A DNA stretch of 64,000 nucleotides, from the IMG/VR virus record IMGVR_UViG_3300011116_001234, positions 2,212 through 66,211 of that record; one strand, written 5' to 3'. Made by a program: the position numbers and the translations under genes. Below are positions 6,467-40,350 of this stretch, piece after piece. The notes under the pieces were generated by a model that saw nothing but the letters and a program-made list of their open reading frames with translations, did not search any database and was not told the DNA's origin. This DNA is from a virus. Lineage: Duplodnaviria > Caudoviricetes. How positions within the stretch are numbered: position 1 is the stretch's first letter; each line of letters opens with the position of its first letter.

Positions 6467-6822
6467 GGTGGATCTAGAGGGAGTCGAACCCTCGTCCAGA
6501 AAAGCATCGAAACAAATCTACTACGCAATGTAGTTTGTCTTTATACTGTCTCATGACTTCAACAAACAAAACCCATGAGAAGCGTCTTTAGTGTCTTAAT
6601 CCCGTTTACAAATGACAAATCTAACGAGAAGCAATCTGATTGTTGACAAACCTACAACGTACAGATGGAACTTTGTAGGCCCGTCTAGGTCACTGTATCA
6701 AGCAGCGAGAGCTAGAGGTTGTGCGTTATCGTTTGCACTTACGTTTGCACATTGTTAGAGCGGCTATACCCCGCTGTTACGCAATTTGTTCTTATCTTCC
6801 CTGTCGAAACCTTTATAGACCC
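6467..6822 (-). ncRNA. ssrA: tmRNA, tag ANDNAQPLALAA
   Basis: GGGTCTA/TAGATCC acceptor with G3:U pair, TTCGACT T-loop, tag ORF 6736-6698. Confidence 0.95.
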
Positions 6823-6825
6823 TTA

Positions 6826-7254
6826 TTAGAGCTCCACATATGATCTTACAACCTGTGGTGCTCCTCCATCATCATGTCTAACGATCTCACAGATGGCTGC
6901 ATAGTTGACACCTAGTTCTTTTTTGATGTAGTCAAGAGCTAGTTTACAATCATAATCTTTACAACTAAACACATCAAGTTGAAAAAACTTTCTCATTTCC
7001 CATGTGTGGATTGAGATATGTGAAGTTGAGATAACGACCATACCTGTTGTTCCACCTTCATCCTGAAACTTTCCACCTGATTGAACTGCTGCGAGTTTTT
7101 CTGGGTCAAGTTCTACATCTTTGAACACTGGTCCAAAGATGATTTCCATGTCGAGAAGTTTTGTGAGTCCACAGAAAAAGTTGTTTAGATTTTCATGTGA
7201 GAATACTTTTGCATCTTCAACTCTTGCATCGATTGTAATGTGTCTACCGGCCAT
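6826..7254 (-). CDS. speD: S-adenosylmethionine decarboxylase proenzyme family
   Basis: GTTGMVVISTSHISIHTW, LDVFSCK. Confidence 0.85.
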   Translation of the reverse strand: MAGRHITIDARVEDAKVFSHENLNNFFCGLTKLLDMEIIFGPVFKDVELDPEKLAAVQSGGKFQDEGGTTGMVVISTSHISIHTWEMRKFFQLDVFSCKDYDCKLALDYIKKELGVNYAAICEIVRHDDGGAPQVVRSYVEL

Positions 7255-7291
7255 TTATATACCTCGTTTGATTATGGAAAACACATAACTA

Positions 7292-10200
7292 TCAATCAAT
7301 TTTATAGATCTTGTTTTGATATGCAGAAAATCCAAAATCGCTTTTATCAAACAAGCCTACGACAACATCATTTTGTGTGAGATTTACTTCACCTTTCCAT
7401 CCCCAGATAAAGCATGTGATTTCTTTGTTTGCTTCTGCGAACAAACGAAGCTTCATGTATGTTTTGCCTGTCTTGGTTTTGGCTAGACCAGCAGAAGCAA
7501 CGATGCCCCAATAGTTTCCTTTTTCACTCCAGTTATCGATTGATTCAAATCCAAGATCATCAAGTTTCTCACGGGATTCTTTTGACAGAAGAAGATCAAA
7601 ATCAACTGAACCTGCAAGTTCTTTTGTAAACTCCATTTTCTCTGCCTTGGTCCAATCTTCCATCTCTTGAACTGCGGCAATCGCTGCTTCTAGTTCTACG
7701 GTGATATGATTATTCTTCTTGCGTGAAGTGATACGCTTGAACAAATCGTTTTTCTCTACAAGTACCGAATATGCTTGCTTGTAGTTCTTGAATACCTTGC
7801 CTTCACCAACAATATCCATTGAACCAAGTGCTTCTAGTTTAATCAAAGTTGTTAGAGCACTCTTGTTAAACTTGCTGTGACGCCATGTGCCATCTGGATT
7901 AACCAACAAATCCTTCACCGAATTATATGGACGAAATTGTTGAATTTCCGAAACTGCTGTTTTACCAACATGAGCGAGCGAAGAGAAGCTGGGCACAAGA
8001 GTTTGTGGTTTGGTTGGATGAACCACGATCTCATATTCAGACACGTTAATGTCTGGCTTGGTCAACTCATATCCAAGTGCTTTTGCTTCCTTGATTGCAA
8101 TAGCCTTGGGATCTTCCTTGCCTGTTACTTTGCCCTTAGAGATTGCACAATAATCAATATATGTTGCAATCCATTCATCTGGATAATAAGTCAAGAACCA
8201 AGCGCATTGCCATGTTGTGATTGCGTAGCAAACAGCGTGAGACTTGTTGAACGAATAAGCAACAAGCTTTTCCATTTCATCAAAGATATCGCCGCAATCT
8301 TCTGCATCAATGTTGTTGGTTTTAGCGCAAGCATCAATAAAGCTCTGACGAAGTTTGTTACGCTCTGCTTGTGCCTTTTCCTTATTGTTGATTTCCTTCT
8401 TGGTGAATGCTTTACGGATACCGTCTGTGTCTTCAAGAGGAACACCAGCAAGCTTATGGTAAATCATTTGAAGCTGCTCTTGGAACACAAGAAGTCCAGA
8501 AGTTTCTGAGAACACTTCACGAAGCAGTGGATGCTTGTAAATTACATCTTCTGGATTTGAACGGTTATTCAAGAACCGTTGATCTACCTTGAGAGACAGA
8601 GGGCCGGGACGGAAGATAGAAGTTGCAACTGCAATATCTGTCACCGACGCTGGCTTCATTTGACGCATAAAGTTTTGAGTTTTGTCGTTGATGAACTGGA
8701 AGATACCTGTGTAGTTCCCATTCCAGAAAACATTCTCAAAAACTTTTGAATCAGTCATTGGGTTGTTGTCTGGATGTAGGTTATCCCAGAACCATTGCTT
8801 GATTTGTTTGAATGTTGGATGCTTAACGCCTTGCTTTTGCAAGATACGTCGCACACAGTTTTCAAACATACGAAGTGTACCAAGACCAAGAATATCGAAC
8901 TTGAGTAGACCAAACTCTTCAAGGTGACGGAAGTTTACACCTTCTGGCCAAGGAGTTTGTAGCTCACCACCTGCCTTGATAAGAGGCATACCTTCACGGC
9001 TGTTCTCTGTGATGATAACACCCCCAGCGTGCCGTGACAATCCACGCATTTGCTTGAATAACACCTTAATGGTGTTTTGGAATTCTGGATATTTCTCCAT
9101 TAGATCTTGGAACGTAGGAGAATCATTCATAGCATCTTCGAAAGTTAGCACCCATGTACCACGGTCAAACCCTGGCACAGCTTTTGCTACATCAAGCACT
9201 TCCTTTTCAATCTTACCTGTTGCAGCGTTGATTTCTTCGAATGGAAGGTTGTGTAGACGAGCAACGTCTTTGATAAGAGAACGAAGCTGGAGTTGTGCAA
9301 AGTTTGTTACAGGAATAACGTTTTCTGAACCGAAGAACTCAATGAGAAGTTTTACTGCACGATCACGGTCAGAGAAGTCAGAATCAATATCGGGAAATGA
9401 TTTTTTAGACTTAACCAAAAAACGCTCGAAAAGAAGACCAAAGCGAATAGGGTCAACCTGTGTGATGTTCAACACATAGGACAGTAGAGAACCAGCAGCA
9501 GAACCACGGCCATTCCCGATAAGCATGTGTTGCCCAGCAATATCCATGATTTTGTGATAAGTCAAGAAATACTTGGCAAAACGAAGATGCTTGATTGTTT
9601 CTAGTTCATACTTGAGACGATTTACATAAACGTCATCGGTGTTTCGATTAAGTTTACGAAGACCGTCGATAGCAAGACGCACAAGCTGCTTGAAGGCTAC
9701 ATCATCTTCAGACATGCCCGTAGAAGCCTCTAGGAGTTTATCTAGGGCATTCTTTTCAATTAGACGACCGATACCGGGAAGCTTCACAGAGCGGTCAATA
9801 GAAACGTCACCAATAAGGTTGTGAGCGATATCGTAACTTAGTTCGATAGCATCACAAATTTGTTGATCGTCATAAAATGGATATTGTTCTTTGAGTTTTG
9901 TATATTCAGACCAAATTTGATCTGCGTTTTTTGGATAGAGTTCGCACTTAAGTTCATCTACAACTTTAGGAAGAGTTTCTGGATCAATTGTTCCCTTGGT
10001 TTTAGAAGACCAAGCCATAGCCTTATAGATCTCACGTTCACGCCAATGATTTGGGTTAGAGTAGTGAGAATCAACAGTCATAACGAGTTTTAGACCTGTA
10101 CGTTTTGAAAGCTCAATAAGATGATAATTGACAAGGTGTTGAGGTCCAAGTCGATTCATCTGTAGTTCAAGATAATAGTTCTCTGGTCCACCAAGAGCAT

Positions 10201-19385: not shown

Positions 19386-19443
19386 TTACAAACTTTTTTT
19401 CATTTTCTATCTTTTCATGTATTTCGCCATGACAGTTAGAACA
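19386..19443 (-). pseudogene. C-terminal remnant of an HNH endonuclease
   Basis: Reads CSNCHGEIHEKIENEKKF; fused to truncated tRNA-Gly. Confidence 0.65.
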
Positions 19444-19444
19444 T

Positions 19445-19498
19445 GAACCGATAACATCACGTTGGAAGCGTGAGGTTTTACCATTAAACTAACCCCGC
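19445..19498 (-). pseudogene. Truncated tRNA-Gly(TCC)
   Basis: Intact up to ATCGGTTC; 3' T-stem and acceptor strand missing. Confidence 0.8.
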
Positions 19499-19501
19499 AA
19501 G

Positions 19502-19573
19502 TAGGCGCAACTAGATTTGAACTCGTATGAACAATGTGAAAAACTGTTATCCTAACCATTAGATGATGGAACC
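19502..19573 (-). pseudogene. Degenerate tRNA-Glu(TTC)
   Basis: D and anticodon arms present; acceptor and T stems mispaired. Confidence 0.7.
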
Positions 19574-20182: not shown

Positions 20183-20448
20183 GGATCGATTTCATTGTCG
20201 CAATCGAAACAGTGATCACTTTCTGGTATAGTTACCAGTTTCGTTGTTCCATCTTTTTGTGGAATAACAAACGTGCAGGTTGCTGCATCATATTCAACAT
20301 CTTTGTTGCATCTTTTGCACTGATATGTTCTTGCGTCAAAGATCTTTCTACGATTGCAGTTTTTGCATTTTAATGGATCACCGCTCCAATGACTGCTAAA
20401 TGTTGTCTCTTGTTTGCAATGCTCGCAAAGTGCATTTTTATAAAGCAT
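20179..20448 (-). CDS. Multi-CxxC zinc-ribbon protein
   Basis: Four CxxC pairs. Confidence 0.7.
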   Translation of the reverse strand: MLYKNALCEHCKQETTFSSHWSGDPLKCKNCNRRKIFDARTYQCKRCNKDVEYDAATCTFVIPQKDGTTKLVTIPESDHCFDCDNEIDP

Positions 20449-20482
20449 GTTCTTGTGCTATTCTTTTTGTGGGCGACGGCGT

Positions 20483-20779
20483 TTATTTCACCTTGCAGTT
20501 AAAACAGTTGAACTCTGGTGGGTGTCCATCGTCAAAAGTTCGAGTACTATGCCAGTACCCCTCCCTGCCAGTTGAGAAGTTGATCTCGTCGGTTCCCAAA
20601 AGGGCCGACAAAGCGTTCAATTGCTGGAAGGTTAGGATATGCCCTTGTTGGGCCACAAAGGCAACACAATAACCCCTTTCTGGGTCTTTGTGCTCTGCAT
20701 AGTAGTTTGGCTTGAACCCAAACAAATCCTTGATACTCTTTTCAAACAAGTAGGCTTTAGGATTGATTGTTTGTGACAT
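20483..20779 (-). CDS. Hypothetical protein
   Basis: ORF in co-oriented run. Confidence 0.65.
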   Translation of the reverse strand: MSQTINPKAYLFEKSIKDLFGFKPNYYAEHKDPERGYCVAFVAQQGHILTFQQLNALSALLGTDEINFSTGREGYWHSTRTFDDGHPPEFNCFNCKVK

Positions 20780-20818
20780 TGGGTGTCTCTGCTCCGTAAA
20801 CTTTTCCCGTAATGTTTG

Positions 20819-20867
20819 TGCAAGCGACGGGACTTGAACCCGTATGCCCGAAGGCGAGAGATTTTAG
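20819..20867 (-). pseudogene. 3' half of a tRNA-Leu
   Basis: Begins at anticodon loop (TAAAATCTCT); long variable arm, T arm, CGCTTGC-A. Confidence 0.8.
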
Positions 20868-20942
20868 TAGCCACAGTGGGATTCGAACCCACACTTTGGA
20901 GATTTTAAGTCTCCTGCCTGCTGCCGGTTGGGCTATGTGGCC
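20868..20942 (-). tRNA. tRNA-Leu(TAA), short variable arm
   Basis: Cloverleaf, CTTAAAA loop; own TTTACA-17-TAGAGT promoter. Confidence 0.9.
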
Positions 20943-21053
20943 GTTTGTTATATCTTTACTCTAACACTTCTTTTTCAGATTGTAAATCTATTTCTTTTTG
21001 CGGTATACTTATTTATAGTGTCGAATCAATGCCTCTGCCATATGGAGTATACT

Positions 21054-21851
21054 ATGCCTAAATCTAAAACTTGGACAGATGACCAACTAATCTTTGCTGT
21101 AAAATCTTCTTATTCTATTGCTAGCGTTCTTTTGCAGCTTGGTTTGAAAGCTACTGGTGGTAACTATAAAACCATTCAAAATGCCGTAAAACGTTTGCAG
21201 CTAAATACATCACATTGGACAGGCAAAGGACATTTACGAGGAAAAACTCATAACTGGGCTCCTATGAGGGATTTTGAAGATATTTTAGTTGAAGATAGCA
21301 ACTACGTTTCTACTTTCAGTTTGAAACATCGCTTGTTAAGGGCGAATCTTTTATCTTATGAATGTTCAGTTTGTCATATATCTTCTTGGCAAGGCAAAGA
21401 ACTAGCCTTGCAACTAGATCACATAAATGGGATAAACAACGATCATCGTTTGGAAAACTTAAGGTTGTTATGTCCTAACTGTCATTCACAAACAGATACA
21501 TTTGCGGGAAAGAATAAAAAGAAGATGGTAGGGCCGGAGGGACTTGAACCCCCAGTTGCGATTTCCGCTGCTGCTCTTGAGGCAGCCGTGTCTGCCATTC
21601 CACCACGACCCCAGAATCAATGCAATAAATGTCAAAGACCTATTCAAAAACGTTCAAACAGATGCACGTATTGTAAAACAGATGAAAAGATTGTTTGGCC
21701 CTCGAAAGAGGAACTTGAAAAGTTAGTTTGGTCAACATCGTGTTCAAAACTATCACAACAACTTGGTGTTTCTGATAAGGCTATTGAAAAACGATGTAAA
21801 AAACTAGGTATTTCGAAACCTCCAAGGGGCTATTGGGCCAAACAACATTAG
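21054..21851 (+). CDS. HNH homing endonuclease with C-terminal Zn finger and HTH
   Basis: LQLDHING..NDHRLENLRLLCPNCH; GGAG before 21054. Confidence 0.92.
   Translation: MPKSKTWTDDQLIFAVKSSYSIASVLLQLGLKATGGNYKTIQNAVKRLQLNTSHWTGKGHLRGKTHNWAPMRDFEDILVEDSNYVSTFSLKHRLLRANLLSYECSVCHISSWQGKELALQLDHINGINNDHRLENLRLLCPNCHSQTDTFAGKNKKKMVGPEGLEPPVAISAAALEAAVSAIPPRPQNQCNKCQRPIQKRSNRCTYCKTDEKIVWPSKEELEKLVWSTSCSKLSQQLGVSDKAIEKRCKKLGISKPPRGYWAKQH
21526..21612 (-). tRNA. tRNA-Leu(CAA), antisense inside the HNH ORF
   Basis: Full 87-nt class II cloverleaf with CCA. Confidence 0.92.
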
Positions 21852-21881
21852 CTCCTGTGTCTGCCATTCCACCACAAGGGC
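21850..21881 (-). pseudogene. 5' half of a tRNA-Leu
   Basis: GCCCTTGTGGTGGAATGGCAGACACAGGAGCT, broken at the HNH stop; promoter upstream. Confidence 0.8.
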
Positions 21882-21937
21882 TCTGTCGTTATCTGCATTC
21901 TTACTCTAGCAGTCTCTTATTCGTTTGTAAAACTATT

Positions 21938-39584: not shown

Positions 39585-39635
39585 TGGAGCCGAGTGTGAG
39601 ATTCGAACTCACGGTGTTTATATTCCAGTTACCAA
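39585..39635 (-). pseudogene. 3' half of tRNA-Thr(GGT)
   Basis: TTGGTAA CTGGA...GTGAG TTCGAAT CTCAC ACTCGGC T CCA. Confidence 0.8.
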
Positions 39636-40168
39636 TTTTTACCTTGCCGATAACGTTCCATACGTTTAGAACGTCCGTTTCCTTTGTTTAGATTGCGATA
39701 ATTTGGTGTAAGAGAATGATGATTTGGACAAAGCAATTCTAGATTAGATGCTTCTTTATTATCAGCGTTTCCATCGATATGATTTAGTTCAATAGGCACA
39801 GTGCCAGTTATCGGATGAACTTCGCACCAACCACAATTCTCTCTCATACATTTTGCTCCATATAAGTTTATGAGATGCCTACGTAAAGCAGGATTTGATA
39901 ACTTCAACAAGTCATCTTTTGTTCTGGTGTTCTTTACGAAATTTTGCTGACATTTATTGTCACAATAAACTTTTTTATTGTGACTCAGTTCACTCTTACA
40001 AAAGAGACAAAATTTTATCTCTTTTGGAGTGAGATTTTTATCTCTCAATCCTTTTGGGAATCTTCTTTTGCCGCTATATCTTGAAGCGCAACTTTGTTGA
40101 CAAAACTTCCTATTCTTTTCTTTTGCATTGAATGCATTCCCACATTCTAAACAGTCGAACTTATACAT
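39629..40168 (-). CDS. HNH endonuclease with N-terminal Zn fingers
   Basis: IELNHIDGN..N...SNLELLCPNHH; CTAGTTA motif upstream. Confidence 0.9.
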   Translation of the reverse strand: MYKFDCLECGNAFNAKEKNRKFCQQSCASRYSGKRRFPKGLRDKNLTPKEIKFCLFCKSELSHNKKVYCDNKCQQNFVKNTRTKDDLLKLSNPALRRHLINLYGAKCMRENCGWCEVHPITGTVPIELNHIDGNADNKEASNLELLCPNHHSLTPNYRNLNKGNGRSKRMERYRQGKNW

Positions 40169-40221
40169 AAGACCTCTTGTGATATAACTAGTGGTCTATC
40201 TGACTTAAGTAATAAGAAAAA

Positions 40222-40296
40222 TGGAGCCCACTATCCGACTTGAACGGATGACCCCCTCATTACAAGTGAGGAGCTCTACCACTGAGCTAAGTGGGC
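40222..40296 (-). tRNA. tRNA-Thr(TGT)
   Basis: Canonical cloverleaf with CCA. Confidence 0.95.
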
Positions 40297-40308
40297 TAAA
40301 AACTATAA

Positions 40309-40341
40309 AAGTGGTGCAATCGACCTCTATGCAAACCCGGC
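40309..40341 (-). pseudogene. 5' half of tRNA-Thr
   Basis: GCCGGGT pairs with ACTCGGC of the 3' half; D arm GCA TAGAGGTCGAT TGC. Confidence 0.72.
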
Positions 40342-40350
40342 TTAATGTTG

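Follow-up and report, generated by a model that had tools for sequence, protein, structure and literature searches.

The DNA analysed here, called the window below, is a stretch of 64,000 nucleotides (nt), bases 2212-66211 of the 66,211-base virus record IMGVR_UViG_3300011116_001234; all coordinates follow the numbering of the window. At 20867-21849 it holds a cassette of 983 base pairs (bp) that lies between the remains of two leucine (Leu) transfer RNA (tRNA) genes. The cassette contains an HNH endonuclease gene and two intact tRNA genes, one for each of the anticodons of the broken genes. We think it likely that this is an HNH homing cassette that overwrote two Leu tRNAs and that supplies a substitute for each of them.

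The source is probably an uncultured giant phage with a genome of about 245 kilobases (kb), a size that follows from the 27% completeness that CheckV gives to the 66,211-base record. The window has a G+C content of 40.6% and carries 13 tRNA genes and a transfer-messenger RNA (tmRNA) gene, every one on the minus strand according to ARAGORN, which was used for tRNA calling together with the Rfam tRNA model (gathering score 29). No close relative of the window DNA was found among 50,697 named phage records, in which only short HNH and tRNA matches covering at most 7% of the query were seen. The window was compared with contig loci (L-numbered) and with contigs of other public runs (X-numbered). 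The sequences from public runs are contigs, and they carry no information on transcription, RNA ends or strand.

Anatomy of the locus

Read along the minus strand from 21931, the locus begins with a promoter-like sequence, P1 (21903-21931, minus strand; TTTACA-N17-TAGAGT with TG before the -10), ahead of a broken class II tRNA-Leu(CAA). Of this resident gene the 5' remnant is present (21881-21850, minus strand), 32 bases that stand for tRNA positions 1-33, with one stem base lost, and that end in C32-U33. The remnant is followed by the end of the HNH open reading frame (P0001; 265 amino acids, plus strand, 21054-21851), by an intact class II tRNA-Leu(CAA) nested antisense in that frame (21526-21612, minus strand), and by a second promoter-like sequence, P2 (20958-20986, minus strand; again TTTACA-N17-TAGAGT). 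P2 lies ahead of an intact tRNA with the anticodon UAA, a short variable arm and A73 (20867-20942, minus strand). This tRNA is followed by a C and then by the 3' remnant of a resident class II tRNA-Leu(UAA), from nt 34 to A73 (20866-20819, minus strand). On the plus strand, a weak promoter-like site (20980-21009; TTGTAA-18-TATACT, 9/12) precedes the HNH gene. The gene has an alternative start at 21042 and a GGAG 7-10 nt ahead of an ATG.

In the window, each break separates nt 33 from nt 34 of an anticodon loop. The HNH gene ends in TAG (21849-21851), a stop codon that reaches into the 5' remnant; its A and G are complementary to tRNA nt 32-33. A sequence-only reading of this DNA had listed the promoters, the halves, the intact tRNAs and the HNH stop, and ARAGORN, Rfam and our reading of the junctions place each of them where it had been put. 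The reading had also pointed out CTAA at both junctions. The four letters are there and consist of anticodon-loop remains plus cassette bases: C32-U33 followed by cassette bases at the left junction, and a cassette C followed by U34-A35-A36 at the right.

The layout is not an assembly artefact, as contigs from other runs bridge both junctions with one or two differences. The junction of the HNH gene and the 5' half is bridged in X6 (record 21, 21368-21868, 1 difference) and X2 (record 8, 21513-21886, 2 differences), and that of the short tRNA and the 3' half in X2 (record 4, 20818-20930, 1 difference). Two further X2 joints, 20993>21857 and 20942>21513, were considered as empty alleles and rejected; their sides are only 30 letters long, and P1 and P2 are alike.

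A scan for promoter-like sites gave 7 against 5.1 expected in shuffled sequence, and the scan alone is thus weak. The TTTACA-N17-TAGAGT motif is also found ahead of tRNA-Arg, a P1-type promoter precedes the intact Leu(CAA) gene of L167, and a homologue of P2 is present in L085 and L174.

Empty, occupied, decayed and intron-bearing alleles

The sequence-only reading had asked for a comparison with empty alleles, and two loci, L167 and L164, provide it. L167, a record of 260,466 bases (70% complete), is collinear with the window around the locus at 82-98% identity. In it the same promoter P1 is followed by class II genes for tRNA-Leu(CAA) and tRNA-Leu(UAA), both intact and separated by 4 nt, and the HNH protein has no match in the whole record. 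The 5' remnant of the window is identical to nt 1-30 of the Leu(CAA) gene of L167 at 29/30 positions, and the 3' remnant, which starts at U34, is identical to nt 34-81 of its Leu(UAA) gene at 48/48. Collinear blast matches between window and L167 end at 20866 and resume at 21852. The cassette takes the place of about 88 bp, namely Leu(CAA) nt 34-84, the 4-nt spacer and Leu(UAA) nt 1-33.

Judged by these matches, the two halves stem from two genes, the 5' one from Leu(CAA) and the 3' one from its neighbour Leu(UAA), and both resident Leu genes of the window would be dead. The acceptor stem formed by the halves pairs at only 4/7 positions because they derive from two neighbouring genes. The sequence-only reading had noticed this poor pairing and had allowed for two genes or nested events. 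L167 supports the first, and L085 (see below) indicates that the two breaks are separable. The reading had also held that broken and intact tRNAs share an amino acid, and the agreement goes further, as each resident Leu gene has a cassette tRNA with the same anticodon.

The second empty allele, L164, represents a second lineage; its Leu(CAA) gene is intact and differs in the anticodon stem. In L083 and L165 this lineage is occupied: nt 1-33 of the L164 type are followed by the HNH gene with its nested tRNA, by an HNH leader of about 65 nt and by the downstream flank of L164, with nothing left of the old 3' part. P2 and the short tRNA are both absent from L083, which has the HNH unit alone. From the structure of L083 and L165 the minimal mobile unit appears to be the HNH gene with the nested tRNA-Leu(CAA). 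A 5' remnant like that of the window is found in L083, L085 and L165. An exact search of viral contigs with the first 23 bases of the 5' half returned six loci, two of which, L166 and L168, were set aside as unrelated phages in which a tRNA-Leu(UAG) shares the 23 bases.

Other alleles have lost parts of the element. In L163, nt 1-29 are joined straight to the flank, and cassette and tRNA are both lost. In L085, whose flanks match the window at 96-97% identity, a deletion of about 500 bp has removed sequence of the HNH N domain, and the 5' stub, the C domain and the nested tRNA remain; P2 is followed there by a whole class II Leu(UAA) gene, and the short tRNA is absent. L174 keeps the nested tRNA, a short HNH remnant and P2, and its Leu(UAA) gene is interrupted after U34, one base from the break in the window. 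The insert (about 245 nt; L174 7488-7799) matches the group I intron model RF00028 with 48.6 bits and E 1.7e-11; it falls below the gathering score of 50, was missed by the Rfam scan at gathering threshold and was found only in a scan by E value. Its site is the classic one of cyanobacterial and plastid introns, here in a phage. In X18, a contig from an RNA library, the end of the L174 intron is joined to a 3' exon identical to the 3' half in the window. In addition, an open reading frame resembling initiation factor 3, recognised by eye only, lies in L174 (about 6740-7300) directly upstream of the nested-type tRNA-Leu(CAA), where it replaces the HNH C domain, the stub and P1.

The states of L085 and L174, with the Leu(CAA) break and P2 present and Leu(UAA) not replaced by the short tRNA, indicate at least two separable steps. 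The break in Leu(CAA) would have come first, and nt 1-33 of Leu(UAA) would have been replaced by the short tRNA later, at the same loop position.

A tRNA nested in the HNH reading frame

The tRNA-Leu(CAA) of the cassette (21526-21612) scores 50.5 bits in Rfam and has the features of a class II tRNA-Leu: 87 nt, a long arm, A73 and an encoded CCA. The HNH reading frame passes through it on the opposite strand, where the 87 bases are read as the linker VGPEGLEPPVAISAAALEAAVSAIPPRP. Among the three plus-strand frames across the tRNA, one is open, that of the HNH gene. Between the window and L083 the nested tRNA is identical at 85/87 positions (28/29, 29/29 and 28/29 at codon positions 1, 2 and 3). 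The conservation of 28/29 third positions, compared with 61% in the flanks (binomial P about 1e-5), argues that the 87 bases are constrained as RNA while the frame is kept open for protein.

The frame that spans the tRNA is open in the window, in L083 and in P0003-P0010. A linker made of antisense tRNA is found only in the closest clade of the HNH family; it is nearly unchanged in P0003-P0007 and has diverged by in-frame changes in P0008-P0010. P0012 (57% identity) has a different tRNA-like stretch in its linker. Several members of the family (P0033, P0042, P0096, P0105, P0110 and P0112, and also that of L003) end inside or right beside an antisense tRNA, which hints at a possible origin of a read-through fusion that spans a tRNA.

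A promoter motif scan found no promoter of its own for the nested tRNA within 21613-21850. It is probably transcribed from P1, with a leader of about 290 nt that would include the dead stub, and head-on to the HNH mRNA.

The HNH protein and the short tRNA

P0001 has an N-terminal helical part with an HNH/zinc motif (C104, C107, H123, N135, C140, C143 and H144), a linker at about residues 157-186, and a C-terminal zinc ribbon with a helix-turn-helix. Over residues 1-249 it matches phrog_10822, 'HNH endonuclease', with E 4.7e-55. Its family comprises at least 7397 proteins at E <= 1e-5 among the 8000 candidates scored, and the linkers of most members are unrelated, K/P-rich and of differing lengths. 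An AlphaFold2 model built with 80 relatives has a mean predicted local distance difference test score (pLDDT) of 89.7 and a predicted template modelling score (pTM) of 0.49. Its lowest pLDDT values (67 and 58) are in residues 151-170, as would be expected if a tolerant linker connects two folded domains. In PDB sequences, a profile search with P0001 matched only an Lrp-type helix-turn-helix (E 4.8e-4, residues 222-261).

The enzyme looks alive, since the invariant columns of an alignment of 80 relatives are all kept (11/11) and since it aligns without gaps with the HNH protein of the metagenome contig L083 (81% identical, both from 798-nt open reading frames). Identity at codon positions 1, 2 and 3 in this comparison is 85, 89 and 56% in the N domain and 83, 92 and 69% in the C domain, a pattern that points to protein-level selection on both sides of the nested tRNA.

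The second substitute, the short tRNA-Leu(UAA) at 20867-20942, is 76 nt long and scores 60.4 bits in Rfam. It has a class I shape and lacks the class II long arm, and its Leu identity would rest on the UAA anticodon and A73 only. A 21-mer from it had no exact match in viral contigs. Leu-anticodon tRNAs with short variable arms (74-79 nt) are common in the phage tRNA clusters compared here, for example in L012, L023, L075, L118 and L147. In P0005, a relative of P0001 (87% identical), N-terminal read-through turns an antisense short tRNA at the same place into protein sequence, and a composite cassette therefore exists in a diverged relative too. In 29 long open reading frames of the window, TTA and TTG together account for 384/1213 Leu codons, so that both substitute tRNAs are plausibly useful to the phage.

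Recurrence in other phages

The sequence-only reading had proposed a general tRNA-replacing homing cassette, with amino-acid matching across loci as its check. We surveyed 161 loci that encode an HNH relative (80 viral contigs, 80 metagenome contigs and the window's own). At least one tRNA is present in 137/161, and one lies within 300 bp of the HNH match in 121/161. Masking of 1036 intact tRNAs in 173 sequences and a search for leftover pieces gave 94 tRNA-like fragments, many of them far from any HNH gene. Fifteen were kept: 5' or 3' pieces of at least 22 nt, within 300 bp of an HNH match, uncut by a contig end and de-duplicated by sequence. For ten of the fifteen, an intact tRNA of matching anticodon lies no more than 1.5 kb away; pooled anticodon frequencies would give 3.16 (simulated P 5.5e-5), a figure to be read with the presence of tandem isoacceptors in tRNA clusters in mind. 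The survey is small, and it supports the proposed matching.

Several of these loci repeat the layout with other tRNAs. L006 (1890-2593; mirror image in L148, 1470-2173) has a 5' piece of tRNA-Glu(CUC), an antisense HNH gene and an intact tRNA-Glu(CUC); the piece differs from the intact gene and is not a duplication of it. L122 (4221-4787) has an intact tRNA-Ile(GAU), a sense HNH gene and then a 3' piece. In L030 (110-695; also in L032), an insert of about 510 bp splits a tRNA-Ile(UAU) gene behind nt 33. It contains a small HNH open reading frame of a different family and a tRNA-like gene whose anticodon is TAT and whose extra arm is long. The halves are 100% identical to the whole tRNA-Ile(UAU) gene of L031 (2605-2678). 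Similar short AT-rich words are seen at both ends of the L030 insert. Loci that do not fit the layout are L021, L033, L034, L072 and a Val piece in L122. We read the Glu(CUC), Ile(GAU) and Ile(UAU) layouts as independent recurrences in other phages, those of Glu(CUC) and Ile(GAU) being in unrelated ones. To this extent the proposal of a general cassette is supported; cleavage and gene conversion themselves belong to the model below.

The sequence-only reading had drawn a parallel with the threonine (Thr) locus of the window (39596-40349), which we count as a further recurrence. In this locus a short 5' piece comes first, followed by an intact tRNA-Thr(UGU), by an HNH gene in sense orientation (39629-40168, P0002) and by a 3' tRNA remnant. 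The remnant lies directly ahead of a terminator hairpin, and ahead of the same hairpin the HNH-free record G001 has an intact tRNA-Thr(UGU). An exact search with the remnant gave 0 matches, and its isotype is not readable from the sequence.

A model for the cassette

We postulate that the ancestral operon consisted of a promoter, a class II tRNA-Leu(CAA), 4 nt and a class II tRNA-Leu(UAA). The HNH enzyme would cut HNH-free relatives in or near the DNA of a tRNA-Leu anticodon loop. The break would be resected and repaired from the cassette-bearing genome, whereby the recipient would lose part of its tRNA and the divergent cassette tRNA would be copied in. The nested tRNA is presumably not cut itself, as around the break its anticodon stem differs from both resident CAA alleles at 6/13 positions. 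In this way the target site would be destroyed, and the phage would still have its full Leu decoding set. In the lineage of the window, the minimal unit of HNH gene and nested tRNA would have been joined to P2 and the short-arm tRNA-Leu(UAA). The composite could then spread as a unit after a single cut in Leu(CAA), if resection then crossed the 88 bp as far as the homologous 3' part of Leu(UAA).

Several observations weigh against this model. At the right-hand junction a whole tRNA is followed by one C and then by nt 34, which is unlike the product of a simple homologous crossover. The short tRNA shares 18 identical nt in its anticodon arm with the resident Leu(UAA) that it replaced, and in L083 and L085 intact Leu(UAA) genes that share AGACTTAAAATCT adjoin the HNH gene (partly deleted in L085). 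As these genes keep the arm, we dropped the anticodon arm alone as the recognition site. Either the site would have to be larger than the arm, or C34 would have to matter, or something else would have made the break in Leu(UAA), which may indeed not be a cut by this enzyme. P0001 scores 21.2 bits with Pfam PF01844, just below the cut-off of 21.4, and a Foldseek search of its AlphaFold2 model against PDB gave no match at E <= 0.001; the top rows, at E >= 0.1, were the HNH nucleases McrA, Cap5, Cas5-HNH and T4 endonuclease VII. Finally, the events in the survey are few, short fragments were typed by best BLAST match only, and with the related loci taken together (window, L083 and L085; L006 and L148) the 10/15 becomes about 7/12.

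A more ambitious version, in which the antisense nesting is an evolved design, is tentative, and taken as a whole we doubt it. The element would kill the resident tRNA-Leu(CAA) and carry the sole replacement inside its own frame, an addiction-like hold, since deletion of the whole selfish gene would also remove the tRNA. Transcription from P1, head-on against the nuclease mRNA, would keep a dangerous enzyme low. Cut-and-replace cassettes would be a main engine of turnover and diversification in phage tRNA sets, including the short-arm Leu tRNAs, and an arms race would set them against group I introns over the same site in the anticodon loop.

Alternative explanations

The HNH gene could be a passenger of mosaic phage recombination, with the breakpoints set by microhomology between Leu anticodon arms, a stretch of about 17 nt (AGGAGACTYAAAATCTC). 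Both resident genes of L167 contain this stretch, the short substitute and the resident have their 18 nt in common, and nuclease genes are known at exchange boundaries (PMC10448857). Crossover in a shared arm, however, would produce chimeric tRNAs; it would yield neither a stub that runs into the stop codon of an HNH gene nor an entire tRNA with nt 34 behind it. The left junction recurs where the anticodon stem differs (L164 and L083), and an unrelated HNH family shows the same layout at nt 33 of another tRNA (L030). We consider a passenger unlikely.

The enzyme could also have cut both Leu genes at once, with the composite cassette inserted whole. The identical loop position of the two breaks would follow directly from such an event, and the composite is present in a diverged relative, as the read-through of P0005 indicates. 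However, L085 and L174 have the Leu(CAA) break and P2 together with a whole Leu(UAA) gene (interrupted only by the intron in L174), and L083 has the HNH unit without P2 or the short tRNA. An origin in one step therefore seems quite improbable to us, and we favour homing of the HNH unit into Leu(CAA) with a separate, later change at Leu(UAA).

Ordinary decay, in which the halves are leftovers of tandem duplicate tRNA genes and the deletions had nothing to do with the HNH gene, is very improbable. tRNA clusters do hold decayed copies, and many of the 94 fragments lie far from any HNH gene. The empty alleles L167 and L164, however, contradict it, since no duplicates were involved; 983 bp stand in place of about 88 bp exactly between two loop positions, and decay would not account for the anticodon matching in the survey. 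Simple deletions unrelated to the HNH gene were what the sequence-only reading had named as refuting its proposal.

We give almost no credence to a split or intron-containing tRNA with spliced exons or to an integrase product at a tRNA attachment site: L174 does have a group I intron after U34 of Leu(UAA) and the X18 contig joins an intron end of that type to a 3' exon of the window type, but the window has no RF00028 match in 16000-42000 at E <= 1, its halves pair at 4/7 and derive from two genes, no repeat of a tRNA 3' end is found at the cassette, and the HNH gene is the only cassette open reading frame identified, with no indication of an integrase (the other listed open reading frames were not scanned).

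Relation to known systems

The HNH gene is present in some syntenic genomes (window, L083 and L165) and absent from others (L167 and L164), outside any intron, which is one of the features expected of a free-standing homing gene. Group I introns are known in the anticodon loop of tRNA-Leu(UAA), and free-standing endonucleases can target intron insertion sites, an arrangement called collaborative homing. The cassette resembles that system in the gene and the loop affected, and in the intron system the interrupted target is immune to the nuclease. Unlike it, the cassette has no ribozyme, and rescue would come from a second gene and not from splicing. Integrative elements at tRNA genes also break the anticodon loop and leave a displaced 3' part beside an intact tRNA, as in the window. 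Unlike in those elements, the intact tRNA next to the cassette junction is a foreign gene and not the old 5' part completed. The acceptor and T arms of the intact cassette tRNAs are unrelated to those of the remnants.

T4 SegB is nearer in kind. As the passages on it describe (PMC2330249), SegB is a GIY-YIG free-standing homing endonuclease whose gene is part of the T4 tRNA cluster; otherwise homologous relatives lack the gene, and the enzyme cleaves inside their tRNA genes, with the result that its own tRNA region is preferentially inherited, and its expression is thought to be tightly limited by tRNA processing. The window locus likewise has a selfish nuclease gene in a phage tRNA cluster that is missing from HNH-free syntenic relatives, and by this analogy we infer intronless homing of the SegB kind. 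The differences (PMC2330249) are that SegB is GIY-YIG and not HNH, that it recognises T-arm DNA, and that it sits between intact tRNA genes and leaves no broken gene. No tRNA is enclosed in the SegB frame, and no spare with the same anticodon accompanies the gene, whereas the window cassette has both. HNH endonucleases of phage tRNA clusters, as cited in two papers (PMC2330249, PMC10644984), belong to the same family and the same setting and vary among close relatives; as far as the citing passages go, they are intergenic, and these passages name no split tRNA genes and no nested tRNA.

A free-standing homing endonuclease in a phage tRNA cluster is thus known. Particular to this locus are the two genes bridged with two spares, the 87 bases coded twice, and a full allelic series that includes an intron-bearing allele. 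In the titles and abstracts returned by our literature searches we found no HNH cassette that splits a tRNA gene and brings a spare, and no tRNA gene inside a homing-endonuclease frame.

Neighbouring sequences

Next to the 3' remnant, at 20183-20814, lies a 632-bp stretch with two small open reading frames (89 amino acids, rich in CxxC pairs, and 98 amino acids) that is also present in L085. L167 does not have it, and there Leu(UAA) is joined directly to the next gene; one X2 contig skips 20449-20817. Two further stretches, at 19502-19573 and 19436-19491, have tRNA-like Rfam matches (36.5 and 24.8 bits) and no ARAGORN call. The first may be a decaying or unusual tRNA, because L167 and L174 have a tRNA-Glu(UUC) there, after tRNA-Tyr. 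The tmRNA gene of the phage lies at 6467-6822, with the tag ANDNAQPLALAA.

Implications

The homing endonucleases known from tRNA clusters are intergenic passengers. The element described here instead destroys tRNA genes and would repay the phage with divergent copies. Introns and inteins let a selfish nuclease occupy a gene of an essential type without cost to its host; this would be a third such route. The nested tRNA is also a rare and clean case of dual coding, in which what appear to be a functional tRNA gene and a protein linker occupy the same 87 bases on opposite strands, each under its own selection.

The empty, occupied, nuclease-decayed, fully deleted and intron-protected alleles form an unusually complete natural series for testing the model. 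If the mechanism is general, it would provide sequence-specific nucleases with targets that can be read from the genes that they broke. We also suspect that, if such cassettes are general, they could help to explain why the tRNA sets of phages are so variable and why phage tRNAs include non-canonical shapes.

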